Positions 1 through 44,443 are shown, numbered from the stretch's first letter. The stretch: 64,000 nucleotides of DNA from Minisyncoccota bacterium (GCA_041688155.1 JBDNIW010000003.1:95397-159396), one strand, 5' to 3'. A program made the numbers and translations. The notes: generated by a model not told the origin, from the sequence alone.

Positions 1-700
1 CAGGGTCCTCTGATTCGATCATGGCTTTGATCTCGGCTGTCAGCGACGCGTCAGCGGTGATCTCGGTTAATGCTGTGACGTATTCCTCATCGGTGATTTT
101 GTCTTTGCGGTCATTGAGGCGAGTTATCGCCGTGACAGTACCAGCGTCAGTCACACCAAGCGCGGCGTAGGCGTGGTTCATAGTCGCTCGGTTATTGATG
201 AGGATTTCGAACATGTCTTCGGTGGCCCCAAAATCAAGAAAAATCTGGTGGGCAAGTTGGATGATTTCGACGTCGCTGGTGCAGTCGCTGGCGCCAAACA
301 TATCGACGTTCAGTTGCCAGTGTTCACGCAAACGTCCACGCTGCGCGCGTTCGTAGCGAAACAGGTTGGGGATAGAGTACCAACGCGCTGGCCACGCTAG
401 TTCTTTTGCTTTGCCAGCAATCATTCGCGCCACGGTCGGCGTCATCTCAGGCCTTAGGGTCACCTCGCGGTCACCCCGGTCGATAAAGGTATACGTCTGG
501 TCGTTGACCATTTCGGCATTTTCAGCGCCTTTGGCTTTGTACAGCGCTGCTGGTTCTAGCACCGAAGCATCGTACCGCTCATAGCCAAACCGCTCCGCGG
601 TCTCGCTCCAGGTATCAAATATATATTGCTGCACCGCCATAGAGGCCGGGTAAAAGTCGCGGACGCCTTTGTATGATTGGGTAGATAGTGGTTCTGACAT
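1..700 (-). CDS. hisS: histidyl-tRNA synthetase, N-terminal portion; gene runs off window start
   Basis: Minus-strand translation from ATG at 698-700 reads MSEPLSTQSYKGVRDFYP...VTLRPEMTPTVARM, class II HisRS N-terminal motifs. Absent from ORF track because it is truncated by the window edge. Confidence 0.85.
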   Translation of the reverse strand, partial: MSEPLSTQSYKGVRDFYPASMAVQQYIFDTWSETAERFGYERYDASVLEPAALYKAKGAENAEMVNDQTYTFIDRGDREVTLRPEMTPTVARMIAGKAKELAWPARWYSIPNLFRYERAQRGRLREHWQLNVDMFGASDCTSDVEIIQLAHQIFLDFGATEDMFEILINNRATMNHAYAALGVTDAGTVTAITRLNDRKDKITDEEYVTALTEITADASLTAEIKAMIESEDP

Positions 701-760
701 AGAGGTGATTGTACGGGAATAGTGCCGGCGCAGCAAGAAAACCCCCGAGCGGATTTTGTA

Positions 761-1330
761 TTAACCATTGAGCTCGTCCGGCATGGCGTGCAGCTTTTCC
801 ATTCGCCTGTCCATGGCTTTTTGAATGGTAGCTTGCAGCCCGCGCGGGTCGGGGAGGCCAGTGGAATTGAAGTTGCTCTCGTGGGCGCCTGCGGTCTGGG
901 CTTTGAGCGTACCGAAATTAAGCAAGGTGGGGATGATGCCGGTGATTTTGAATTCGATATCTTGCATTCGCTCGAGGCGAAACACACTCACGTTGCGACT
1001 AAAAAAATGCACCTGGTCGACCAGTATAATCCGGCGGTCAGTCACCACCCATAGATCGAGGTAGTAGTGCGTCCAAATAGTGAATCCTCCCAGTAGCGAC
1101 AATAGTAGCCAAGCCGCCACTCCAAACCCAATCACGTTAGCGTATTCCAAGATGTTGAAATTAAGGGTAGAAAAGAAACCCTGGAACACCGCGAACCCAA
1201 TCAGCGCTATAAACGGCAGCAATACTAGAATAAATACTCCAAACAACTCAGCCATGATGACAAACCAGTGCTTACGGACCATGATGAGCACCTCTTCGTC
1301 TGGATCAAGTTGGATTTTTTCGAACAACAT
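761..1330 (-). CDS. membrane protein with bacterial PH (bPH_2/YdbT-like) domain
   Basis: 189 aa; two predicted TM helices followed by a YYLDLWVVTDRRII-type bPH motif. Confidence 0.6.
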   Translation of the reverse strand: MLFEKIQLDPDEEVLIMVRKHWFVIMAELFGVFILVLLPFIALIGFAVFQGFFSTLNFNILEYANVIGFGVAAWLLLSLLGGFTIWTHYYLDLWVVTDRRIILVDQVHFFSRNVSVFRLERMQDIEFKITGIIPTLLNFGTLKAQTAGAHESNFNSTGLPDPRGLQATIQKAMDRRMEKLHAMPDELNG

Positions 1331-1333
1331 ATA

Positions 1334-1576
1334 TTAGAAAGTAAGCGTCAGACCTGCCATGACGAGAAACAGTGGGAGTGTCGTCGCGGCGTAAGTGACA
1401 AACGTGATCCAAGTCACGGCAGTGTTGACGCCGTATTGTTGCCAGTGATAATAAAAAATCGCCGAGTAGATGACATAGATCCCGGTTGCGAGCAGGAACA
1501 GCAGTAGCATCACGTCAGGCAGTGACATAAATTCACCCAGTGTCTCGGTGAGGTTGATGGTCGGCTCGGTCGGCAT
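1334..1576 (-). CDS. small hydrophobic membrane protein, hypothetical
   Basis: 80-aa ORF, mostly hydrophobic, packed tightly between prmC and the PH-domain gene. Confidence 0.45.
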   Translation of the reverse strand: MPTEPTINLTETLGEFMSLPDVMLLLFLLATGIYVIYSAIFYYHWQQYGVNTAVTWITFVTYAATTLPLFLVMAGLTLTF

Positions 1577-1580
1577 GAGA

Positions 1581-2390
1581 TTATTGTACCACTAGAATGG
1601 AATAACGAAGGACGCCGTACTGGTCAGCGTGGCTCGTGCAATTGAATCCGCTATCAGCGGCTAGTTTATTGATGTGGTTGACTTGCTCTGGTTCGTGCTC
1701 AATCCACAGCTGGCCCGTTGGAGTGAGGTGGTCCTTGGCGGTTGCGATTATCTGCCCAATTATTTCCAGGCCGTCCACACCACCATAGAGCGCCAGGTGC
1801 GGTTCGTGTGATTTGACCGACTCGGTTGCGCGGTCAACCTCCGGGTCGATGTATGGTGGGTTGCTGAGGATAAAATCGTATCTGGCGTCGGTTGGGATGC
1901 CGGCAAACAAATTGGAATGATAGATATGGTAGCGCGATTGTTCGATGTGATTTTCGAGACAATTCTTGTTGATAGTGGGAATGAGTCGTACGCTGAGTTC
2001 GACAAAATCCACTTGGACTGCAGGCAAAGCCTTGGCCACAGCGACCCCGATGCAGCCACTGCCAGCACAAAGGTCGAGGATGCTGGTGGTAGGGTGAGGG
2101 TCAGTCAGCTGCACAGCAGCTGACTGACCCTCACCAGCAGACAAAGCCGGTTGGACTGCTTGGTGTTCCTTGATTGCCACAACCGCTTGTTCCACCCAAT
2201 ACTCAGTCTCCACCCGCGGCACCAACGGCTGAGCGTCTAGCCAAATAGTACAATCCAAAAACGGCACCTGCCCAATCAGGTACCCCAGCGGCGTCCCCAG
2301 CGCCAAAGCCTTGCAGTCAGCATAAAACTCCGCAGTTTTCACACTGCCGTATTTCTCCGCAAGCAACCACTGTTCTTCTTGACTTTTCAT
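1581..2390 (-). CDS. prmC: release factor glutamine methyltransferase PrmC/HemK
   Basis: 269 aa; class I SAM methyltransferase with NPPY motif (FILSNPPYI) and LDLCAGSGCIG. Confidence 0.85.
   Translation of the reverse strand: MKSQEEQWLLAEKYGSVKTAEFYADCKALALGTPLGYLIGQVPFLDCTIWLDAQPLVPRVETEYWVEQAVVAIKEHQAVQPALSAGEGQSAAVQLTDPHPTTSILDLCAGSGCIGVAVAKALPAVQVDFVELSVRLIPTINKNCLENHIEQSRYHIYHSNLFAGIPTDARYDFILSNPPYIDPEVDRATESVKSHEPHLALYGGVDGLEIIGQIIATAKDHLTPTGQLWIEHEPEQVNHINKLAADSGFNCTSHADQYGVLRYSILVVQ
2366..2390. repeat. 24-nt direct repeat copy 1 (prmC start, CCACTGTTCTTCTTGACTTTTCAT)
   Basis: Identical 24-mer recurs at 3290-3313, bracketing a low-GC segment that carries a RelE/ParD cassette. Confidence 0.8.
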
Positions 2391-2404
2391 AGAATTACTG
2401 CAAT

Positions 2405-2707
2405 ATGAGCGAGAATAGAAGTTCTGTCAAGCTTGAAGGGAAAGGTTGTGAAAAACATTACTATGAACGAAATTCACTCCGCATTAGCTGGGCAGAACAT
2501 CGTACATTCAAAGAGGCTGCTCAATCTCTTTCAGTTTCACCTCCGTGTTTTACTCGATGTATAAAAGATGCGGACCAAAAACTAGGATTGAACCTATTTA
2601 TAATGTCGCCTCTGCCAGTAAGTCTGAATCCAGATTACGAGCATGTTTTCCAATTGTTTAAAGAAATTGATCAAGCGTACGTTAAACTTAATCAACTGTC
2701 GAAATAA
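2405..2707 (+). CDS. hypothetical protein (low-GC cassette ORF)
   Basis: 100-aa ORF in an AT-rich segment, followed by a GC-clamp terminator; no recognisable motif. Confidence 0.35.
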   Translation: MSENRSSVKLEGKGCEKHYYERNSLRISWAEHRTFKEAAQSLSVSPPCFTRCIKDADQKLGLNLFIMSPLPVSLNPDYEHVFQLFKEIDQAYVKLNQLSK

Positions 2708-2713
2708 TTACAT

Positions 2714-2743
2714 TCGCGCGGCATCCATCGCGCGGCTTTTTTT
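2714..2743 (+). terminator. intrinsic terminator (CGCGCG stem + T7)
   Basis: tCGCGCGgcatccatCGCGCGgcttttttt; self-complementary GC stem then T-run. Confidence 0.55.
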
Positions 2744-2760
2744 GTTTGGCTCACTTGTCC

Positions 2761-3027
2761 CTACAAATACACATCATGATCGCCAACCGCAATCAGCCGG
2801 ACTGTCTGATCATCAACATACGCAAATATAACTCGGTGCGAGTAGGTGACGGAAAAACTATTTAAACCCTTGAGACTACCTTTGAGTTTGTGGACACGTA
2901 AACGTTCGTGGTTGGCTGGGTCGCGGAACAGCTCGATTTTCTCCAGCGCCTCAATGATCACCACCACCGGCAACTTCTTGAGCTCCCGCACAAAAGACGG
3001 TTTGTATTTAAAGCTGAGCTTAGTCAA
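2761..3027 (-). CDS. type II toxin, RelE/ParE family
   Basis: 88 aa; family-like C-terminus YSHRVIFAYVDDQTVRLIAVGDHD; overlaps the upstream antitoxin gene by 8 nt. Confidence 0.7.
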   Translation of the reverse strand: MTKLSFKYKPSFVRELKKLPVVVIIEALEKIELFRDPANHERLRVHKLKGSLKGLNSFSVTYSHRVIFAYVDDQTVRLIAVGDHDVYL

Positions 3028-3226
3028 TTTGCTTCATTAACTCTCGCAAATCACCAGTCAGATCAGGTTCCTGCATCGCGCGCAAGATGTCTGCGACAGC
3101 CTTGTCTTCACGGTACTTTTTCAGTGCTTGGCGCATAATGTCAGCCTTGGAAAGCCCACTTTCAGCCGCATGTTCAACGACAAATTTTTCAAGTTCAGGG
3201 GTGAGGGGAACAGAGAGGGTAGACAT
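3020..3226 (-). CDS. type II antitoxin, ParD/RHH (CopG-like) family
   Basis: 68 aa; ribbon-helix-helix-like N-terminus; gene order and overlap typical of a TA operon. Confidence 0.65.
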   Translation of the reverse strand: MSTLSVPLTPELEKFVVEHAAESGLSKADIMRQALKKYREDKAVADILRAMQEPDLTGDLRELMKQID

Positions 3227-3289
3227 ACAAATACCTATGATAATTTAATATGTCTTTATCATATCATAGTGGTAGGAGGTGGCAAGAAG

Positions 3290-3313
3290 CCACTGTTCTT
3301 CTTGACTTTTCAT
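3290..3313. repeat. 24-nt direct repeat copy 2 (duplicated prmC start plus 21-codon remnant ORF)
   Basis: Minus-strand ATGAAAAGTCAAGAAGAACAGTGG (MKSQEEQW) is identical to the prmC start, then diverges and stops after 21 codons. Confidence 0.8.
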
Positions 3314-3482
3314 CATCAAGTTGTATTTGGTTCGCAGCATTATTGTTTGGCGTTGTTGGTATAAAAGGTGCTTTCTTGATTGAACGTATTGTAACCCTGT
3401 TGCAGGGTGACATAATTGTTGTTGGAAATATGGGGCAGTGGGGACCCTCCAGTCGTATCACAGAAACGTACAGATAGTTTAG

Positions 3483-3519
3483 TCGCGCGGTTGATCTTTT
3501 TCAATCGCGCGGCTTTTTT
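3483..3519 (+). terminator. second GC-clamp terminator-like hairpin (same CGCGCG stem)
   Basis: tCGCGCGgttgatctttttcaatCGCGCGgctttttt; same stem as 2714-2743 with a different loop. Confidence 0.45.
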
Positions 3520-3636
3520 AAATGAAAAAACGAGCGTAGCGACTATTTTGAATTTATGTCCCAATTCTGGCTTTTGACCCAGACAGAATTGCTGGACCTT
3601 TTTTCTTACTTACTATCGGGTGTATACTGCAAACCT

Positions 3637-4392
3637 ATGTCTACACCGATGCTGGAGATCAAAAACCTCACCAAGGTTTATGGAAAGGGGAAAGATGCCA
3701 AGACCGCAGTCCGTGACCTGTCGCTGACGGTCAAGCGGGGGGCGTTTTATGGGCTGCTTGGGCCTAACGGGGCGGGGAAGTCGACGGTGATCCATTGCAT
3801 CACGGGGATTGCGCAGCCAACCAACGGAACCATTACCGTTGATGGCATCGATGTAGTAAAGGACTATCGGCAAGCGCGGACCAAAGTTGGCCTGTCACCG
3901 CAAGAGTTCAACGTCGATATATTTGCGACGCCGGCCCAACTGATGGATTATATGGGTGGCTATTACAAAATCCCTGCGGCAGTGCGAGCCGAGCGGATCG
4001 AACGGTTGATCGAACGGTTTGATTTGCAGGAGCACCGCGATGTGAAATTCCAGAAATTATCCGGTGGACTCAAACGCCGGGCGATGCTCGGGCGGGCGCT
4101 GATTCACACCCCAGACCTATTGATCCTCGACGAGCCAACCGCTGGGGTAGATGTCGAGCAGCGCAAAGACCTGTGGGCGTACCTCAAAGAGATGAACGAA
4201 CGTGGCAAAACCATCATCCTCACCTCGCACTACCTCGAAGAAATCGAATATCTCTGCAAAGAAATTGCGATTATCAACCACGGGAAAATTGTCGCGCAAG
4301 GGACTAAAGCTGAGTTTATGAAAGGAGGCAAGTCGGTGGAGGAGGCGTATCTAGAGATTACGAGAGCCGATAATGACCAAGCTGCTACGTAA
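3637..4392 (+). CDS. ABC transporter ATP-binding protein (ABC-2 exporter type)
   Basis: Walker A GLLGPNGAGKST, signature LSGGLKRR, Walker B LILDEPTAGVD; start chosen at internal ATG 3637 (MSTPMLEIKNL). Confidence 0.85.
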   Translation: MSTPMLEIKNLTKVYGKGKDAKTAVRDLSLTVKRGAFYGLLGPNGAGKSTVIHCITGIAQPTNGTITVDGIDVVKDYRQARTKVGLSPQEFNVDIFATPAQLMDYMGGYYKIPAAVRAERIERLIERFDLQEHRDVKFQKLSGGLKRRAMLGRALIHTPDLLILDEPTAGVDVEQRKDLWAYLKEMNERGKTIILTSHYLEEIEYLCKEIAIINHGKIVAQGTKAEFMKGGKSVEEAYLEITRADNDQAAT

Positions 4393-4505
4393 TTTTTAGG
4401 GGCGCTCGAGGCCGCTAGGCCATGATGTACCCCTAAAAATCACGCACCAGCTTACTCACTATCTGTTACCATGTGTTGCAAGATCAGCACCCTAACTATT
4501 TTTAT

Positions 4506-5267
4506 ATGAACACAATTGGACTCTACACAATGTTTCGCCGCGAGGTACAGCGGACTATGCGGGTGGCGATACAGACGCTAATCGCGCCGGTGGTAGCCGC
4601 GGCGCTGTACATATTTATTTTTGGGTCAGTCATCGGAACCAAGATTGATGACTTTGCTGGCGTGCCGTACATCTCGTTCGTGTTCCCGGGGATTTTGATG
4701 CTGTCGATAATTAACGCCTCGTTTGCGAGTGCGTCTTCCAGTCTCTATTTTATGCGCTTTACCCGCGGGATTGAAGAAATCCTCATCTCACCGTTTTCGT
4801 ACTTGGAAATGCTGCTGGGGTTTGTGGGTGGCGCTATCGTGCGGGCGCTGATGGTGGCAGGGTTGGTTCTGGGGGTTGGGTTGGCGTTTGGGGCGGTGCA
4901 GTTGCAGCACCCGCTGGCATTTGTGGGGTATGTGTCGATGATTGCGGCGATTTTTGCCATGCTGGGGATTATTGTGGCGCTGTGGGCCGAAGGGTTCGAG
5001 CAGTTGCAGTCGCTCAATACGTTTGTGATTACACCGCTCACGTACCTCGGGGGGATTTTCTACAGCATCACCATGCTGCCGTCGCTGGCGGCTAGTATCA
5101 CTATGTACAATCCATTTTTCTATTTTGCCGATGGTATCCGCAGCAGCATGATTGGGTATAGCGAAGCTAATTCGGCCGTGGGGCTAGCGGTCACGCTGGG
5201 GTTAGTGCTGGCACTTGGGTTACTTGTCATCCGTCTTTTCCAAACAGGGTGGAAAATTCGGTCGTAA
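4506..5267 (+). CDS. ABC-2 family transporter permease
   Basis: About six TM segments, partner of the upstream ATPase; start chosen at MNTIGLYTMFRREV. Confidence 0.75.
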   Translation: MNTIGLYTMFRREVQRTMRVAIQTLIAPVVAAALYIFIFGSVIGTKIDDFAGVPYISFVFPGILMLSIINASFASASSSLYFMRFTRGIEEILISPFSYLEMLLGFVGGAIVRALMVAGLVLGVGLAFGAVQLQHPLAFVGYVSMIAAIFAMLGIIVALWAEGFEQLQSLNTFVITPLTYLGGIFYSITMLPSLAASITMYNPFFYFADGIRSSMIGYSEANSAVGLAVTLGLVLALGLLVIRLFQTGWKIRS

Positions 5268-5290
5268 TAAATTACACCACCTCATCCACA

Positions 5291-5330
5291 CAGCCCGCTG
5301 AGTTTTGCTCGGCGGGCTGTTATTATTCAG
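5291..5330 (+). terminator. intrinsic terminator after the permease gene
   Basis: cagcccgctgag-tttg-ctcggcgggctg then ttattatt. Confidence 0.5.
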
Positions 5331-5332
5331 GT

Positions 5333-6334
5333 ATGAAAAACAATACTAAATTATACGAAACTGCCGCGGCGCTGTTGGCTAGCGGTAAGGGGATTTTAGC
5401 AGCGGACGAAAGTGACGGGACGGCTGGCAAGCGGCTAGAGCGAGTGCACCTTGAGAATACGCCCGAGAACCGGCAGGATTTCCGCGAGATATTATTTACC
5501 GCCGACGGCATTGAGCAGTACATCTCAGGGGTGATCATGTACGACTCGTCAATCCGCAACACTACCGACGACGGCACACCGTTCCCGGACGTGCTCGTAG
5601 CCAAGGGTATCATCCCGGGGATCAAAGTCGACACTGGCGTCAACGACCACCAAGGGTTCAAAGGGGAAGTTATCACCCAGGGTCTCGATGATCTCGCCGA
5701 CCGACTGGCTGAGTATTACTCGATGGGGGCGCGGTTTGCCAAATGGCGGATGGTAGTCGACATTGACGGCGACGACACTCCGACCTACGAGACGGTCAAA
5801 ATGAACTGTATCCAGATGACCCGCTACGCGCAGCTGTGTCAGGCTGCCGGCATCGTCCCGATTGTCGAGCCGGAAGTCATCCACGCTGGTGACCACTCGC
5901 TCCAGAAAGCGGAAATCGAAACCACTCGCACCCTGCAGATCCTTTTCCAGACCCTACAAGAATACCGCGTGGACCTCGCCGGACTGATCCTCAAATCATC
6001 AATGGTCCTCGCTGGAGACAAATACGCCGAGCAAACGTCAGCCCAAGAAGTGGCGCAAGCCACTCTGCGCACCTTCCACATGAGCGTGCCACATGAGACA
6101 GCCGGGATTGTGTTCCTATCAGGTGGACAGTCACCCGAACGGTCAGCAGAAAACCTTGATGCAATAGCAAAAATGGGACAGCAACCATGGCCAGTCACGT
6201 TTTCATTCTCTCGCGCGCTTGAGCAACCGGTACTCGATGCCTGGGGCGGTAAACCAGAGAACGTCGATGCGGCCAAAGCCTCCATGCTCGAAGTGGTCAA
6301 GCGAAACAGCGCCGCCAGCCTCGGACAGCTCTAA
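5333..6334 (+). CDS. fba: fructose-bisphosphate aldolase, class I
   Basis: GILAADESDGTAGKRL...ILKSSMV, class I (Schiff-base) FBA motifs; start at internal ATG 5333 (MKNNTKLYETAAALL). Confidence 0.85.
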   Translation: MKNNTKLYETAAALLASGKGILAADESDGTAGKRLERVHLENTPENRQDFREILFTADGIEQYISGVIMYDSSIRNTTDDGTPFPDVLVAKGIIPGIKVDTGVNDHQGFKGEVITQGLDDLADRLAEYYSMGARFAKWRMVVDIDGDDTPTYETVKMNCIQMTRYAQLCQAAGIVPIVEPEVIHAGDHSLQKAEIETTRTLQILFQTLQEYRVDLAGLILKSSMVLAGDKYAEQTSAQEVAQATLRTFHMSVPHETAGIVFLSGGQSPERSAENLDAIAKMGQQPWPVTFSFSRALEQPVLDAWGGKPENVDAAKASMLEVVKRNSAASLGQL

Positions 6335-6339
6335 ACAGG

Positions 6340-6378
6340 CCTAATCCCGCAGATTACCCGGCAATCTGCGGGATTAGG
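6340..6378. repeat. hairpin with 16-bp stem CCTAATCCCGCAGATT/AATCTGCGGGATTAGG (copy 1)
   Basis: Stem identical to the hairpin at 33405-33443; the 7-nt loops differ. Lies 6 nt after the fba stop. Confidence 0.8.
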
Positions 6379-6438
6379 TACTCTAGGTATACCGTAAAAT
6401 CGCTCTAACCCTAGGGTCGGACACGTACAGGAGAGATA

Positions 6439-6472
6439 AACCAAAACCGCACCCTAGGGTGCGGTTTTGGTT
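6439..6472. terminator. 34-nt perfect palindrome, probable terminator for rpmG and/or fba
   Basis: aaccaaaaccgcaccc-tag-ggtgcggttttggtt. Confidence 0.5.
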
Positions 6473-6482
6473 GGTCTGGTCT

Positions 6483-6662
6483 TTATTTCTTCTGAACGTA
6501 CAGACAGTGCTTTTGGGCTACTGGGTTGAATTTGGTTTCTTGGTGCTTTTTGCTTGGGTCTTTTTTGTTTTTGTTGTTAAACCGCGTGTAGTACACGTGA
6601 CCCTTACCGATGCCGGTCGCATCGCCTTTTGAAACCATCTTGATGAGTAAATCTTGTGACAT
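6483..6662 (-). CDS. rpmG: 50S ribosomal protein L33
   Basis: 59 aa, MSQDLLIKMVSKGDATGIGKGHVYYTRFNNKNKKDPSKKHQETKFNPVAQKHCLYVQKK, L33 pattern Y.T.KNK...KxE.KKxxPvaxKHxlY. Missed by the track (under 60 aa), which lists a spurious out-of-frame ORF here instead. Confidence 0.8.
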   Translation of the reverse strand: MSQDLLIKMVSKGDATGIGKGHVYYTRFNNKNKKDPSKKHQETKFNPVAQKHCLYVQKK

Positions 6663-6821
6663 AGTGGGCTAATACTAGCAAACCGCTGAAAAATGTCAAT
6701 CAGACTACTTGCGTCTAAAGGCAATCAACAGTATTTGATGGCTTTACAAAGGTTGGCTTTTGCATCGTGCTAGTATGAAGGCATTGTCGGACTTTCAGGT
6801 AGATTGCTGATCCGATAACTT

Positions 6822-8054
6822 TTGATAATGAAAGTTCTTACCTTCAGTTGGGAGTATCCTCCAGCCAAAAACGGCGGCCTTGGAGTCGCCTGCTTTGGTT
6901 TAACGCGCGAACTACTACACGACGGTGTGGAGGTGACCTTGGTGTTACCGAAAACCCAAGTCATTAAGGGTGACGTGCGGGTGTTGTTTGCGGATACTGA
7001 ACGCCTGGTGCGGATGAGTGAATATGAGCAGTCGTTCCCTGGACCCTATCACCACGCTACAACGATGGTTGACTCAGTTATCGGGTACGATGCTACCGGC
7101 AAACCAATTCTCCGGTCACGAACGATTCTCGAAGAAGCCCATCGCTTTGCCCACCAAGCAGCCGTCATTGCTCGTATGGAGCAGTTTGACGTGATACACG
7201 CTCACGACTGGACTTCGTATCTGGCTGGAGTTGCAGCCAAGATTGCTAGTGGTAAGCCATTGGTATTGCACGTACATGCCACATCATTTGATCAGGCGGC
7301 TGGTGACAACGTCGATCCGAGCATGCATCAAATTGAGCTCGAAGGGTTCGCCATGGCCGACCGGGTAGTGGCGGTAAGTAATTTCACCCGCAACATGCTG
7401 ATCAACAAACACGGCGTGCAGCCCGACAAAATCGAGGTGGTACACAACGGCTGCGATGCGGAAGAGGTAATCGTGCTTGAGCCAACCCTCCAAGCGCTAC
7501 GCGACCAAGGCAAGAAAATCGTTCTCTATCACGGCCGCATTAGTATCCAAAAAGGGGTTGATTATTTTGTGCATGCCGCCAGACGGGTGGTCGATGTCGA
7601 CCCGAACGTGGTGTTTGTTATCTCAGGCTGGGGCGACATGATAAAACAGGTTATCCACCAAGTGGGTGAGATGGGACTATCAGAACATGTCCGGTTCGCC
7701 GGGGCCACTTGGGAGCAGGAGCGTGACCGGCTGTATCAGAGTGTTGATTTGTTTGTGATGCCGTCGGTGTCGGAGCCATTTGGGTTGGTGCCGCTCGAAG
7801 CGCTGCAGCACGGGACCCCTTCAATCATTACCAAACAGTCCGGCGTGGCCGAAGTCCTCACCCACGCCCTCAAAGTTGATTTTTGGGATGTGGACCAGAT
7901 GGCCAACCAAATCTTGTCCGCGTTGCGCTACCCAGTTATGGGCGAGCAGATTGTCAAAGAAGGTAGGTTGCAGCTGTTGGGTCTGTCGTGGCAAAAAGCC
8001 GCCGCCAAGATGGCTGCTCTCTATCGTAATCTGCTACAATACGCAACATCATAA
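6822..8054 (+). CDS. GT4-type glycosyltransferase, glycogen/starch-synthase-like
   Basis: 410 aa; N-terminal KVLTFSWEYPPAKNGGLGVA and C-terminal EPFGLVPLEALQHGTP retaining-GT motif. Confidence 0.75.
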   Translation: MIMKVLTFSWEYPPAKNGGLGVACFGLTRELLHDGVEVTLVLPKTQVIKGDVRVLFADTERLVRMSEYEQSFPGPYHHATTMVDSVIGYDATGKPILRSRTILEEAHRFAHQAAVIARMEQFDVIHAHDWTSYLAGVAAKIASGKPLVLHVHATSFDQAAGDNVDPSMHQIELEGFAMADRVVAVSNFTRNMLINKHGVQPDKIEVVHNGCDAEEVIVLEPTLQALRDQGKKIVLYHGRISIQKGVDYFVHAARRVVDVDPNVVFVISGWGDMIKQVIHQVGEMGLSEHVRFAGATWEQERDRLYQSVDLFVMPSVSEPFGLVPLEALQHGTPSIITKQSGVAEVLTHALKVDFWDVDQMANQILSALRYPVMGEQIVKEGRLQLLGLSWQKAAAKMAALYRNLLQYATS

Positions 8055-22170: not shown

Positions 22171-22240
22171 GTATATCCTCCTCCAGATAATACAGCAGAG
22201 TAGCTTGCAATATATAGACATTGTAATACAATGTAAGCAT

Positions 22241-22516
22241 ATGAAAACATCCCCGTATACTATTCGCCTAGCTGACGACGTTCGCGCTGCGCTCGAACTT
22301 GAAGCCAAACGTGAGGATCGTTCTGCGGCTCAGTTAGCTACCCAGGCGATTAAAACTATGTTGGCTCAGAAAACTGTGTATCACGCGGCGATTGACACTG
22401 CACTGGAGGAAACTACCAAAGGAAGATTCATCTCTCAGGCAGCCATGCATGAGTGGATCGATAGTTGGGGTGCCGATAGTGAACAAGCAGCACCGACAAT
22501 AGACATCATCCGCTAG
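22241..22516 (+). CDS. type II antitoxin, ParD/RHH (CopG-like)
   Basis: 91 aa from internal ATG; ribbon-helix-helix-like N-terminus (YTIRLADDVRAALE), partner of the downstream ParE-like toxin. Confidence 0.65.
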   Translation: MKTSPYTIRLADDVRAALELEAKREDRSAAQLATQAIKTMLAQKTVYHAAIDTALEETTKGRFISQAAMHEWIDSWGADSEQAAPTIDIIR

Positions 22517-22518
22517 TC

Positions 22519-22800
22519 ATGCAGTTGGTTTATCTACCAAGTACTGAGTCGGACTTACGGTGGTTGCGACAGTACTATGAACAAGTGTTCGTAGCAGGGT
22601 TACAGGCTGCCCGGCAGCATATCTACGCCACCGAGGCGGCGTTACTTGCTAACCCATACTTGGGCCGTCAGGGGAGCGATAACACTAACGTGCGATCGTT
22701 GCCGATCAGTCGGACGCCCTTTGTATTTGTCTACCGAGTAAACAATAATGAAATACAAATTCTGCGCGTCTGGGACACGCGACGTGATAGTGGAGACTGA
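22519..22800 (+). CDS. type II toxin, ParE/RelE family
   Basis: 93 aa; family-like C-terminus FVFVYRVNNNEIQILRVWDTRRD; 2-nt gap from the antitoxin. Confidence 0.7.
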   Translation: MQLVYLPSTESDLRWLRQYYEQVFVAGLQAARQHIYATEAALLANPYLGRQGSDNTNVRSLPISRTPFVFVYRVNNNEIQILRVWDTRRDSGD

Positions 22801-26868: not shown

Positions 26869-27120
26869 ATGAAAACTCTTACTACAACAGTTGCTCGTAA
26901 AAACCTAGCTGAACTGATTGATACTATTAAATCAACCAATGAAATATTTGCTATTGGCAGGCGCAACAAACCCGAGGTGATTGTGATGAAATTTCCTGAA
27001 ACCTATAACCCAGCGTTCGATGAAATAACAAACCTCAATGCCATGTCTGGTAGTTTTGATTTCTTGGCAGACGAGCCTGATTTATATACGCTTGCTGATG
27101 CCAAAGAAGTCTATGTCTAA
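26869..27120 (+). CDS. type II antitoxin, Phd/YefM family
   Basis: 83 aa, MKTLTTTVARKNLAELIDTIKSTNEIFAIGRRNKPEVIVM. Confidence 0.7.
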   Translation: MKTLTTTVARKNLAELIDTIKSTNEIFAIGRRNKPEVIVMKFPETYNPAFDEITNLNAMSGSFDFLADEPDLYTLADAKEVYV

Positions 27121-27430
27121 GCTGTACGACATCATCCTTATACCGTTTCCATTGACTGATCTGGCTAGTCAAAAAATTCGACCTGCTTTACAGTTGTCGA
27201 GTATAACTGACAAAGATGTATTGCTGTGTGCTATTTCAACCAAGACTCACTCCAAGTTTGATATAAAAATTATGCCGACGTCAGAGAACGGTTTGAAGCA
27301 AATATCTTATGTCCGTACCAACAAAGTAGCTACTATAGACAGGAAGCTAGTGCTGGCTAAGTTAGGTGTACTTGAATCTGTTGCAGTAAAAAGTGTTAAA
27401 ACAAAACTGGCAAAGCTATTTGGTTTGTAA
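27113..27430 (+). CDS. type II toxin, MazF/PemK-like
   Basis: 105 aa, MSKLYDIILIPFPLTDLASQKIRPAL..., overlapping ATGTCTAA start/stop with the antitoxin. Confidence 0.6.
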   Translation: MSKLYDIILIPFPLTDLASQKIRPALQLSSITDKDVLLCAISTKTHSKFDIKIMPTSENGLKQISYVRTNKVATIDRKLVLAKLGVLESVAVKSVKTKLAKLFGL

Positions 27431-42770: not shown

Positions 42771-43790
42771 ATGTCTTTTTTCTCTAACCTTACGCCCAAA
42801 ATCGGCATTGATCTGGGTACCACCAACATTCTGGTATTTGTGCCGGGGCAAGGGATTGTGCTCAACGAACCATCGGTGGTGGCGGTATCAGACGATAATC
42901 GGGTGCTGGCGGTGGGGACTGAGGCTAAACTGATGATTGGCCGGACGCCCGAGAGTATCCGGGCGTATCGGCCCATGCGCGACGGCGTGATTGCGGACTA
43001 CCGCGTGACCGAAGCGATGCTGCGGTACTTTTTGCGCAAATCGATGAGTAAATTTAGTCTGTTCCGGCCGGACGTGATGGTGTCAGTACCAGCCGGGGTC
43101 ACCTCAACCGAGCGTCGCGCCGTGGTTGAAGCCACTATGAAAGCCGGAGCCCGTAACGCGTTTGTGGTCAAGGAACCAATTCTGGCCGCAATTGGGGCTG
43201 GTGTGCCGATTTATGAACCGCAGGGACATATGATCATCGATATCGGTGGTGGCACGATTGACTGTGCGGTGATTAGTCTGGGGGGGATTGTGTCATCCAA
43301 CTCAGTCAAGTGCGCTGGGAACAAAATCGACGCGGCGATTATCGACTACGTCAAAAAGTCGCGGAACCTCGCTATCGGTGAGAAAACCGCTGAGGAAATC
43401 AAAATCGGCGTCGGGTCCGCGTTACCGCTTGAGGAGGAATTGTCGATGGAGATCAACGGGCGCGATATGATTAGTGGCTTGCCGCGGAGGGTGACTATTA
43501 CGAGTAACGAGGTGGTCAAAGCCATCAGCAAGGAATTAAAAGAAATGATTGCTGCCATCAAAACCGTGTTTCAAGAAACTCCACCCGAGCTGTCGTCCGA
43601 CATCATCGACGGTGGCATCATCATGACAGGTGGCACCAGCCAGCTGCGTAATTTTCCTGAGTTGATCCGCAGGCGCACCGGGGTAAAAGCCGCCGTGGCC
43701 GACCAAGCGTTGTTCTGCGTCGCCAAGGGCACCGGGATTGCGCTGGAGCACCTGGACGTCTACAAACGAGCGGTGTTGGCCAAGAAGTAG
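42771..43790 (+). CDS. MreB-like actin homolog (paralog 1)
   Basis: IGIDLGTTNILVFVPGQGIVLNEPSVVAV. Confidence 0.8.
   Translation: MSFFSNLTPKIGIDLGTTNILVFVPGQGIVLNEPSVVAVSDDNRVLAVGTEAKLMIGRTPESIRAYRPMRDGVIADYRVTEAMLRYFLRKSMSKFSLFRPDVMVSVPAGVTSTERRAVVEATMKAGARNAFVVKEPILAAIGAGVPIYEPQGHMIIDIGGGTIDCAVISLGGIVSSNSVKCAGNKIDAAIIDYVKKSRNLAIGEKTAEEIKIGVGSALPLEEELSMEINGRDMISGLPRRVTITSNEVVKAISKELKEMIAAIKTVFQETPPELSSDIIDGGIIMTGGTSQLRNFPELIRRRTGVKAAVADQALFCVAKGTGIALEHLDVYKRAVLAKK
43770..43790. repeat. 21-nt direct repeat copy 1 (end of mreB-like gene incl. stop)
   Basis: GCGGTGTTGGCCAAGAAGTAG repeated at 43942-43962, just before a ParE-like TA cassette. Confidence 0.75.
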
Positions 43791-43852: not shown

Positions 43853-43968
43853 ACATGATTTTACTTGTCCGCCGCGTATTTGAGACAAAATCTACTGCTT
43901 TGCTATCAGGGTAGGATATGTAGAGACTTGAGTCTAAGCGGGCGGTGTTGGCCAAGAAGTAGTTGTTA

Positions 43969-44253
43969 TTACACACGCTCTTGCGCTGTATGGTGAATCG
44001 TAATAATTACTACGGTTGGTTGCGGATCGGTGTCATCTACTCGATAGATGATTTGAAATGGACCAATAAAAACTCGCCGATATTGGTCGCGGAATTGCGC
44101 ACCTCGGTTTGGTAGTAGACTCAGAGACTCACACTTGGATTCTATGGCCTCAATCATTTTGACTGCAGCTGTTGGAGAATCTCCAGCGATGTAGTCGCCA
44201 ATCATAGTTAATTGCGATAGAGCGGCGGACGATAGAATTACTCTAGCGCGCAT
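43969..44253 (-). CDS. type II toxin, ParE/RelE family
   Basis: 94 aa; family-like IYRVDDTDPQPTVVIITIHHTAQ. Confidence 0.6.
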   Translation of the reverse strand: MRARVILSSAALSQLTMIGDYIAGDSPTAAVKMIEAIESKCESLSLLPNRGAQFRDQYRRVFIGPFQIIYRVDDTDPQPTVVIITIHHTAQERV

Positions 44254-44443
44254 AGCGCTGTTTCAGGATTGCAAAGGCTTCAGTTGCGTCTATTGCAGAG
44301 TCGTGTAATAGCGACGCTTCACCAGCGGCGATTTTGCGTTCGATAATCATGGCCTCAATCTGAATTGCGAGTTCTTGCTGGTCTGTTTCGGGTAAGTCAG
44401 CAGCGGAGGTGATGATGGCTGTGAGTTGGTGTTTCATGTCCAA
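44243..44443 (-). CDS. antitoxin (addiction-module component, TIGR02574-like)
   Basis: 66 aa, LPETDQQELAIQIEAMIIERK; overlaps the toxin gene by 11 nt. Confidence 0.5.
   Translation of the reverse strand: MDMKHQLTAIITSAADLPETDQQELAIQIEAMIIERKIAAGEASLLHDSAIDATEAFAILKQRYAR

Follow-up and report, generated by a model that had tools for sequence, protein, structure and literature searches.

How did the first codons of a housekeeping gene come to stand on both sides of a toxin–antitoxin operon? The question is raised by a stretch of 64,000 nucleotides (nt) of DNA from Minisyncoccota bacterium (GCA_041688155.1 JBDNIW010000003.1:95397-159396; the window). In it, the release-factor glutamine methyltransferase gene prmC and a divergent ABC transporter ATPase gene are separated by a gap that holds a toxin–antitoxin (TA) pair and a second copy of the prmC start. 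An earlier note, made from the sequence alone, had proposed that a RelE/ParD cassette was inserted here, bracketed by a 24-base-pair (bp) duplication. The comparative analysis described below favors, with moderate confidence, a different history, in which the second copy is the stranded 5' end of prmC, the TA operon is a long-term resident, and the duplicated frame around it came from recombination between variants of the locus. The window organism is an uncultured Patescibacterium whose closest species representative shows 71% PrmC identity. Contigs of relatives were reached via PrmC homologues, and about 45 related loci (numbered with the prefix L) were examined, from records labelled Kaiserbacteria, Paceibacteria or Saccharibacteria.

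Read from the ABC gene, the window locus has the order ABC-B1-X1-A'-TA-B2-X2-A-prmC, in which A denotes the prmC start and B a CGCGCGG terminator hairpin. Both of these frame elements are duplicated, leaving two slots, X1 and X2, on either side of the TA operon. The features are as follows.

1581–2390, minus strand: prmC, intact, 269 amino acids (aa) (Pfam MTS, 1.4e-17; NCBIfam hemK_fam, 160.5 bits, above cut-off; RF_mod_PrmC, 2.3e-51)
2359–2390, minus strand: A, the first 32 nt of functional prmC, with the exact 24-mer at 2367–2390 (repeat comparison)
2402–2430, minus strand: predicted current prmC promoter, TTGACA-17-CATATT (consensus scan, 10/12)
2405–2707, plus strand: occupant of X2, a 100-aa LysR-type protein with only a helix-turn-helix (HTH) domain, here called HTH100; AT-rich, strain-specific (Pfam HTH_1, 1.3e-6, 28.7 bits, above cut-off)
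2714–2746, plus strand: B2, a CGCGCGG-stem terminator hairpin (2714–2735) with T-run, which ends X2; its 3' half lies in the conserved TA module
2761–3027, minus strand: RelE/HigB/YoeB-like toxin, 88 aa, with a TTG start overlapping the antitoxin stop (full-length Pfam and NCBIfam matches below cut-off; homologue profile)
3020–3226, minus strand: ribbon-helix-helix (RHH) antitoxin, 68 aa (Pfam RHH_1, 23.1 bits, cut-off 20.5)
3236–3285, minus strand: predicted TA promoter, -35 TTGCCA (3285–3280), 16-nt spacer, TG-extended -10 TATGAT (3263–3258) (consensus scan, 10/12, the best in the region)
3282–3313, minus strand: A', the vestigial prmC start (first 32 nt), which opens a 22-codon open reading frame (ORF) at 3313–3245 (repeat comparison)
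3314–3480, plus strand: U1, the content of X1, with only a doubtful 75-codon ORF (3250–3477) that runs back over the vestige (G+C at third codon positions, GC3, 0.355)
3481–3520, plus strand: B1, a strong terminator hairpin (3481–3514; 14-pair stem, -24.2 kcal/mol, z -6.5) with T-run, upstream of the ABC promoter
3637–4392, plus strand: ABC transporter ATPase, the core gene across the gap (Pfam ABC_tran, 1.1e-31)

The 24-mer CCACTGTTCTTCTTGACTTTTCAT occurs at 2367–2390 and 3290–3313 and nowhere else in the window, and none of 100 shuffled sequences contained a match with up to three mismatches allowed. The duplication reported earlier is real and consists of exactly two copies, the first of which begins at 2367, one base from the position (2366) first given. 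The repeat lengthens to 32 nt (2359–2390 versus 3282–3313, 30 of 32 identical), and its two mismatches both fall in the Leu9 codon, TTG versus CTT, where they are synonymous. In a global alignment of 2340–2765 with 3263–3545, homology is limited to the 32-mer and half of the terminator; additional short repeat matches (D11, D12) are out of frame. The second copy does open a remnant reading frame, MKSQEEQWLLATSYHYDMIKTY followed by a stop codon, although with 22 codons and not the 21 first counted. The stub comprises the prmC start codon and ten and two-thirds further codons and meets the TA sequence after ...CTTGC (...CTTGC|CACCTCC), a junction whose position does not differ between the window, L087 and L088. 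This arrangement is not an assembly artefact, since window positions 1–7000, including both 24-mers, are 100% identical in contigs of JGI 3300027832 and JGI 3300007519, and positions 1–6468 are identical in Logan SRR9199117. The collapsed repeat against which the earlier note had cautioned is thus contradicted by three independent assemblies.

The extent of the repeat carries information about its origin. In L001, L084–L086 and L152–L156, lineages with 63–95% protein identity, the functional prmC begins with the exact 24-mer; among them prmC codons 1–8 show zero synonymous variation while later codons vary synonymously. The 24 bases identical between A and A' are exactly this family-invariant part of the gene. 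The -10 boxes of all prmC promoter types lie 11–13 nt before the ATG; in the window the box ends 11 nt ahead of it, so that the leader is very short or absent. These distances suggest that the prmC mRNA is near-leaderless, with constraint on its first bases; the prmC start has diverged in L091 and L092, which have prmC within the TA operon. A constrained 5' end would explain why A and A' agree at every base over exactly 24 nt and beyond that show allele-type synonymous changes. The Leu9 codon is CTT in A', TTG in the resident window prmC and CTG in L001, and in L087 and L088 the vestige is closer to the family consensus than is the resident prmC start. Judged by these alleles, and by the family-typical prmC promoter that in L088 still precedes it, A' looks like a displaced prmC start of ancestral type that came from another allele, rather than a fresh copy of the resident gene or a target-site copy made at this position.

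The wider setting of the gap is conserved. The order FBA-ABC permease-ABC ATPase, divergent from prmC-80-aa membrane protein (mem80)-bPH, is held in about 35 species, in which the distance between the ABC and prmC starts ranges from 0 to 2480 bp (less than 125 bp in 17 loci, 385–2480 bp in 18). Long gaps are filled by unrelated small genes from at least eight unrelated families, and the recurrent occupants beside prmC are the YunG family, LysR-HTH proteins, a 112–114-aa family, a 126–136-aa family and several 150–155-aa ORFs. By its gene content, the prmC/ABC gap is a hotspot of gene turnover across this Patescibacteria family. The layouts in the window and its close strains illustrate this turnover.

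Window: ABC-B1-U1-A'-RHH-RelE-B2-HTH100-A-prmC
L087: ABC-B1-U1-A'-RHH-RelE-B2-114aa-A-prmC
L088: ABC-B1-112aa-(native prmC promoter)-A'-RHH-RelE-B2-YunG-A-prmC
L089/L090: ABC-B1-113aa-(native promoter)-degenerate A'-RHH-RelE-B2-150aa-A-prmC
L084–L086: ABC-B-YunG-A-prmC, with no TA and no A'

These layouts show that the interval between the two prmC starts is not inherited as one piece. Positions 2727–3313, which comprise half of B2, RelE, RHH, the predicted TA promoter and A', are common to the window, L087 and L088 at 97.6%, whereas the gene adjacent to prmC differs in each case (HTH100 in the window, a 114-aa protein in L087, YunG in L088, a 150-aa protein in L090). The proposal of a single cassette of ~900 bp is therefore not tenable. 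What does hold is the association between the TA and the duplication: the TA-bearing window, L087 and L088 carry a second prmC start, and the TA-free L084, with PrmC 95% identical to that of the window, has a single start and no remnant. TA-free and TA-bearing alleles share samples, for instance L086 and L090 in JGI 3300012031.

The boundaries between shared and unshared sequence coincide with the frame elements. Homology between the window and L088 breaks at 3506 and 2727, which is the same position in both TCGCGCGGCTTTTT half-hairpins; near B2, homology with L087 begins at 2715. The 112/114-aa unit, with its family-typical prmC promoter GCATAGTAGA, lies beside the real prmC in L087 and beside the vestige in L088, and it must therefore have moved from slot to slot with a crossover in A. 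The flanking genes of the close strains are 93–97% nucleotide-identical to the window, and prmC is lower only through a local divergent patch. In L088, among the few strains available for comparison, this patch (window 2210–1860) shows 30–70% nucleotide identity between flanks of 88–100%, as though part of the core gene had been replaced by recombination with a divergent allele. A recent horizontal spread of the TA, which had seemed far more conserved than its flanks, was considered and rejected on the same figures, the low prmC identity being local to this patch.

The TA operon has a long history at this locus. In L091 and L092 it occupies the same place, with RelE 69%, RHH about 80% and PrmC 61–64% identical to the window, and there is no second slot. 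Compared with the window copy, the TA of these lineages differs at a proportion between 0.60 and 0.90 of synonymous sites (pS), which are saturated, and at 0.14–0.16 of nonsynonymous sites (pN); for RelE against the L091 copy, pN is 0.16 and pS 0.9. These divergences indicate that the TA is old at the prmC/ABC locus and under purifying selection, and they contradict a recent arrival, as does the degenerate prmC promoter and start retained in L091. Upstream of RHH in L091, the similarity to the real prmC promoter and start reaches a score that none of 1000 shuffles attained, and the vestige keeps TTGACG, a -10-like box, AAAAGTCAAG, GTGGC and TTGCAA. The trace in L089 is weaker (5 of 1000 shuffles reach the score), and upstream of RHH in L092 no vestige is detectable. 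The vestige is thus graded, from pristine in the window, L087 and L088, through degenerate in L089 and L091, to none in L092. The earlier note had asked whether relatives share the arrangement without the duplication: among close strains they do not, whereas in the old lineages they do, the duplicate having decayed in L089 and L091 and being undetectable in L092. In both L091 (1964–2437) and L092 (2698–3171), RHH and RelE are followed after 2 nt by the prmC ATG, and prmC is apparently, by this spacing, the co-transcribed third gene of the TA operon.

The genes first noticed between the two copies, a hypothetical ORF and a TA pair, hold up as an HTH-only ORF, a probable RelE-superfamily toxin and an RHH antitoxin. 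The name RelE/ParD is approximate. All full-length single-sequence scores of the toxin fall below the curated cut-offs (RelE_StbE 24.4 versus 27.9 bits, HigB-like 23.3 versus 27, ParE 19.1 versus 23, YafQ 18.7 versus 30). A profile built from 32 toxin homologues matched HigB, YoeB, RelE and HP0894 chains at E values of 1e-4 to 2e-2 and nothing outside the superfamily. It is reasonable on these matches to place the toxin in the RelE/ParE superfamily, with no specific placement as RelE, HigB, YoeB or ParE. The antitoxin reaches neither the ParD model (NCBIfam TIGR02606, 16.5 versus 46.2 bits) nor a RelB-like model (19 versus 50). The exact RelE protein is missing from the records, where gene callers chose a different start. 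Distant RelE homologues (at most 56% identity) lie in unrelated contexts and are uninformative on this locus, no relatives of the toxin were found in the viral contigs searched, and a literature search returned no description of a prmC-linked TA in Patescibacteria.

The operon is organized like RelBE, HigBA and YefM-YoeB, with the antitoxin first and bearing an RHH DNA-binding domain, the start of the 88-aa toxin overlapping the antitoxin stop, and an inverted repeat over the promoter; the structures matched by the homologue profile (HigB, YoeB, RelE) are from the same systems. The RelE TTG at 3027 overlaps the RHH stop at 3020–3022, and both order and overlap are kept in L087–L092. An 8-bp inverted repeat read from the sequence, TATGATAA-N12-TTATCATA (3263–3236), overlaps the TA -10 box and is a putative RHH operator. 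In contrast to those systems, no single family model matches the toxin above its curated cut-off, the antitoxin belongs with the generic RHH proteins and is not a ParD or RelB equivalog, and in some relatives the operon runs straight into the housekeeping gene prmC. The predicted TA promoter gives the stub a possible role. Its -35 hexamer consists of prmC codons 10–11 and the junction (CTT GC|CA); TTGCCA or TTGCAA is kept in every lineage with a recognizable vestige (thus not in L092), and the ATGATAAA motif is kept in all six. This retention leads us to infer that the stranded prmC codons persisted through their use as the -35 box.

The second duplicated element, B, is likewise part of the frame. 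Both related CGCGCG-stem terminators of the earlier note are present, on the plus strand at 2714–2735 and 3481–3514, and the module they share, CGCGCGGCTTTTT, occurs in the window at 2729 and 3506 only. They had been described as parts of the cassette. Equivalent hairpins (GCCGCGCG...CGCGCGG) adjoin ABC in L084–L088, L091, L152, L154 and L156, beside unrelated X genes, in the form aaagAAAGCCGCGCG-loop-CGCGCGG; L153 has a variant stem in the hairpin next to ABC. From its position in these loci, B1 is a family-conserved terminator ahead of the ABC promoter and an element of the frame. Because the hairpin beside ABC is conserved next to different X genes, B2 is, like A', a duplicated frame element, and neither terminator belongs to a cassette.

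The contents of the two slots differ in character. HTH100 (GC 0.383, GC3 0.297) has no nucleotide relative in any related locus fetched and is a recent, AT-rich, strain-specific acquisition in the second slot. U1 is common only to L087, at 98% identity. Neither it nor its 75-codon ORF matches Pfam or NCBIfam, an Rfam family or a relic of the X genes of relatives, and the region is probably non-coding. The interval between the repeats (2391–3289) had been described as AT-rich, and its GC of 0.435, against a window mean of 0.508, does fall in the lowest 2% of windows of equal size. The source of this low value is the HTH ORF and the promoter region, whereas RelE is native-like (GC3 0.584, versus 0.584 ± 0.077 in 18 large ORFs).

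Based on these comparisons, a simple model would start from an RHH-RelE operon wedged between a prmC stub and the complete prmC. The oldest visible layout would be that of L091, in which the native prmC promoter and the decayed stub are followed by RHH, RelE, a 2-nt spacer and prmC. In the strain group of the window, a second copy of the frame, consisting of hairpin B, a variable X2, a new promoter and the prmC start A, would then have split RelE from prmC. Two variants of the locus may have recombined unequally, illegitimately or through short homology (Campbell-type) to give the duplicated frame, with long homology in prmC, the TA or ABC anchoring one side and the short A or B the other. The near-perfect A' of the window, L087 and L088 would reflect recent exchange with the genuine prmC start of another allele. 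Co-occurring strains trade alleles of X1, X2 and part of prmC itself, and the breaks fall at A and B; neither a transposase nor a cassette-borne integrase would be needed. Recombination between locus variants of co-occurring strains is the simplest route and the best explanation of the observed anatomy.

Such behavior has precedents. Mobile-element genes are missing from many chromosomal hotspots, and homologous recombination is frequent in the core genes on either side of them (Oliveira, Touchon, Cury and Rocha 2017, PMC5635113). The prmC/ABC locus shares with them the same flanking core genes (prmC and the ABC ATPase) in about 35 species, a fast turnover of accessory and TA genes without integrase or transposase, and signs of recombination in a flanking core gene, namely the divergent prmC patch. 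It differs from them in being very small, with one to three genes per slot, in that the frame itself (gene start and terminator) is duplicated and its two slots are split by a TA, and in belonging to a reduced-genome Patescibacterium known only from metagenomes. Other uncultured lineages, too, are reported to have variable hotspots that contain type II TA operons (PMC13385816).

Several points weigh against this account. The junction between remnant and TA falls at one base in every lineage, and A and B are recurrent breakpoints; a site-specific recombinase acting in trans predicts the same. A homology of 24–32 nt is short for RecA-driven exchange unless a long anchor lies on the opposite side, and that anchor is assumed. 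A' is pristine in three strains and degenerate in L089, whose TA is 98–99% identical, so that an extra refreshing event would be needed. The strains do not fix the direction of change: L084 may have arisen by deletion or may keep an ancestral single slot, and L091 could be ancestral or derived by loss of X2. Finally, the account offers no cause for the original placement of the TA after prmC codon 11.

Among the alternatives, the one that survives best is also rather unlikely. It holds that A and B are true sites of a recombinase encoded elsewhere and that small genes and TA modules are shuffled between them in the manner of an integron. A and B are indeed repeatedly the breakpoints of modules, unrelated X genes share the same terminal hairpin stem, the first 24 nt of prmC are invariant at the nucleotide level while later codons vary synonymously, and two more TA loci of the window adjoin duplicated ends of neighboring genes or hairpins (the mreB 3' end at 43764 and 43936, and a 32-nt hairpin at 32599 and 33336). 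Integron gene cassettes often carry TA modules in chromosomal arrays, and the units here resemble them in being small, single-gene and adjacent, each with a hairpin end, and in having a TA among them. In contrast to integrons, the locus has no intI, no attI and, by inspection of the CGCGCGG hairpins and their T-runs, no attC core, and its units face away from prmC and have their own promoters. No linked recombinase gene is present in any of the roughly 45 loci, and the hairpins of the three TA loci have no common sequence. The conservation of each supposed site is explicable otherwise, that of B by its place as a terminator ahead of the ABC promoter and that of A by the 5' end of a near-leaderless mRNA, the start having diverged where prmC is inside the operon in L091 and L092. 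The degenerate copies of A' argue that no selection keeps it as a site. A broader form of the idea, that cassettes are captured at A and B in reduced genomes without a linked integrase, or by one acting in trans, possibly seeding TA modules generally, is speculative and carries the same low expectation. Even more speculatively, the co-transcription of prmC with RelE suggested by the L091 and L092 layouts might place a release-factor-activating enzyme under TA autoregulation.

A second alternative, closer to the original proposal, is improbable. It posits a single non-autonomous element of about 920 bp, comprising the HTH gene, a terminator and RelE/RHH, that recently integrated by site-specific recombination at the prmC start, with the 24-mers as attL and attR and the integrase elsewhere. 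Direct repeats of a target-gene end, as expected of att sites, are present (24 bp perfect within 32 nt at 30/32), the interval between them is low in GC, the related strain L084 has neither the TA nor the second copy, and the arms diverge beside an identical core. Integrative elements such as SXT in prfC enter a gene at its 5' end and provide it with a new start. The likeness extends to a direct repeat of the first codons of a translation-termination-related gene, which stays intact and has a new upstream region and promoter. The window locus departs from the SXT type in having no integrase, no element-sized cargo and no inheritance as a unit, and in a repeat that is decayed in older lineages. 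The interval is not co-inherited, as the TA and vestige occur at 97.6% identity in strains with another gene in place of HTH100, and the low GC is confined to HTH100 and the promoter region. In lineages whose PrmC is 61–64% identical, the TA is in the same place, its synonymous sites are saturated and, in L091, the vestige has decayed. No precise empty site was found among the related loci: in L084, YunG occupies the gap and 78 bp upstream of ABC are missing. The absence of a visible integrase, remarked on before, holds for the genes from 4.4 kb left of the window through its length (precomputed Pfam tables to about 50 kb; large ORFs of the last 14 kb scanned separately), and neither that region nor the related loci contain Phage_integrase, resolvase or transposase families.

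An internal origin, in which the B-X-A frame was duplicated in tandem in one chromosome, the TA was inserted between the copies and the differences are later divergence, is about as improbable as a single element. Both frame elements are duplicated in the same order, B1...A'...B2...A, as it predicts. Against it, X1 and X2 are unrelated in every strain, the simplest TA layout (L091 and L092) has no second frame, and A' carries allele-type synonymous changes that, in L087 and L088, leave it nearer the family consensus than the resident gene. Transposition with a long target-site duplication, or a collapsed or chimeric assembly, would also place direct repeats around an insert and merits almost no credence, given that no inverted repeats flank 2391–3289, no transposase is present, a 32-nt duplication is far longer than those typically made by transposases, and the layout is identical in the three assemblies and recurs in diverged strains.

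Recombination between locus variants makes the locus a new instance of known phenomena (a hotspot flanked by core genes, a chromosomal TA, a vestigial gene end) and not a new type of system. Its value lies in an unusually clear anatomy, in which the evolution of a very small intergenic hotspot can be followed base by base in an uncultured bacterium with a reduced genome. A TA operon came to lie between prmC, a housekeeping gene, and the promoter of that gene, and took a predicted -35 box from the stranded gene start. Later it became the partition between two slots; strains that occur together swap the small genes in these slots, and no machinery of mobile elements is visible. One lesson for annotation is that duplicated terminators and short "remnant" ORFs beside TA modules can be duplications of a frame and are not necessarily att sites. 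For the population genomics of Patescibacteria, prmC-ABC offers a compact marker locus with many alleles.

Further observations concern the two flanking genes. Within the prmC coding region lies a perfect 20-3-20 palindrome, GGTGAGGGTCAGTCAGCTGC agc GCAGCTGACTGACCCTCACC (2093–2135). The 269-aa PrmC of the window and of L084 has it, the 257- and 260-aa PrmC of L087 and L088 do not, and it has the look of a palindrome inserted in frame into the inter-domain linker. Across the gap, ABC is preceded by a 78-bp segment (3521–3598) in the window, L088 and L089 that is missing in L084, L087 and L091. The true ABC start is probably 3637, where tblastn matches in relatives begin (MSTPMLEIKNL), and the ORF from 3556 is an artefactual 5' extension created by the 78-bp segment.

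Five type II TA pairs lie within the 64 kb of the window, a part of this reduced genome that otherwise carries housekeeping genes, at 2761–3226, 22205–22800, 26869–27430, 32690–33223 and 43969–44437. In order, they are of the types RHH/RelE-like, RelB3/ParE, Phd/PemK, an unclassified antitoxin with YafQ and an unclassified antitoxin with ParE. The last 27 nt of mreB, including the stop, occur at 43764–43790 and again at 43936–43962 (25 of 27 identical), 172 nt downstream, where the second copy lies immediately beside the stop of the ParE toxin gene (the ParE-type TA at 43969–44437 is on the minus strand). The 145 nt between the copies are partly self-complementary, and the duplication is common to all seven strain contigs examined and hence uninformative on mechanism. 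It is the second instance in the window of a TA with a duplicated gene end at its side. The antitoxin/YafQ pair (about 32690–33223, plus strand) is bracketed by copies of a 32-nt palindromic hairpin, GCTTCGCCTAGGC...GCCTAGGCGAAGC, at 32599–32630 and 33336–33367 (81% identical), with a third, partial copy at 32573–32604. Another strain-variable toxin site lies between an EPSP-synthase-like gene and a 631-aa gene: among L160–L162, whose MreB is identical to that of the window, some strains have a 108-aa HicA-toxin gene there, and the window has only a 75-aa ORF (about 40.5–41.1 kb). A 300-nt direct repeat (33502–33801 versus 34111–34410, 76% identity) reflects a tandem pair of paralogous fasciclin-domain genes, and a complete V/A-type ATPase operon (subunits I, c, AC39, F, A, B and D) occupies about 13.5–22 kb of the window.

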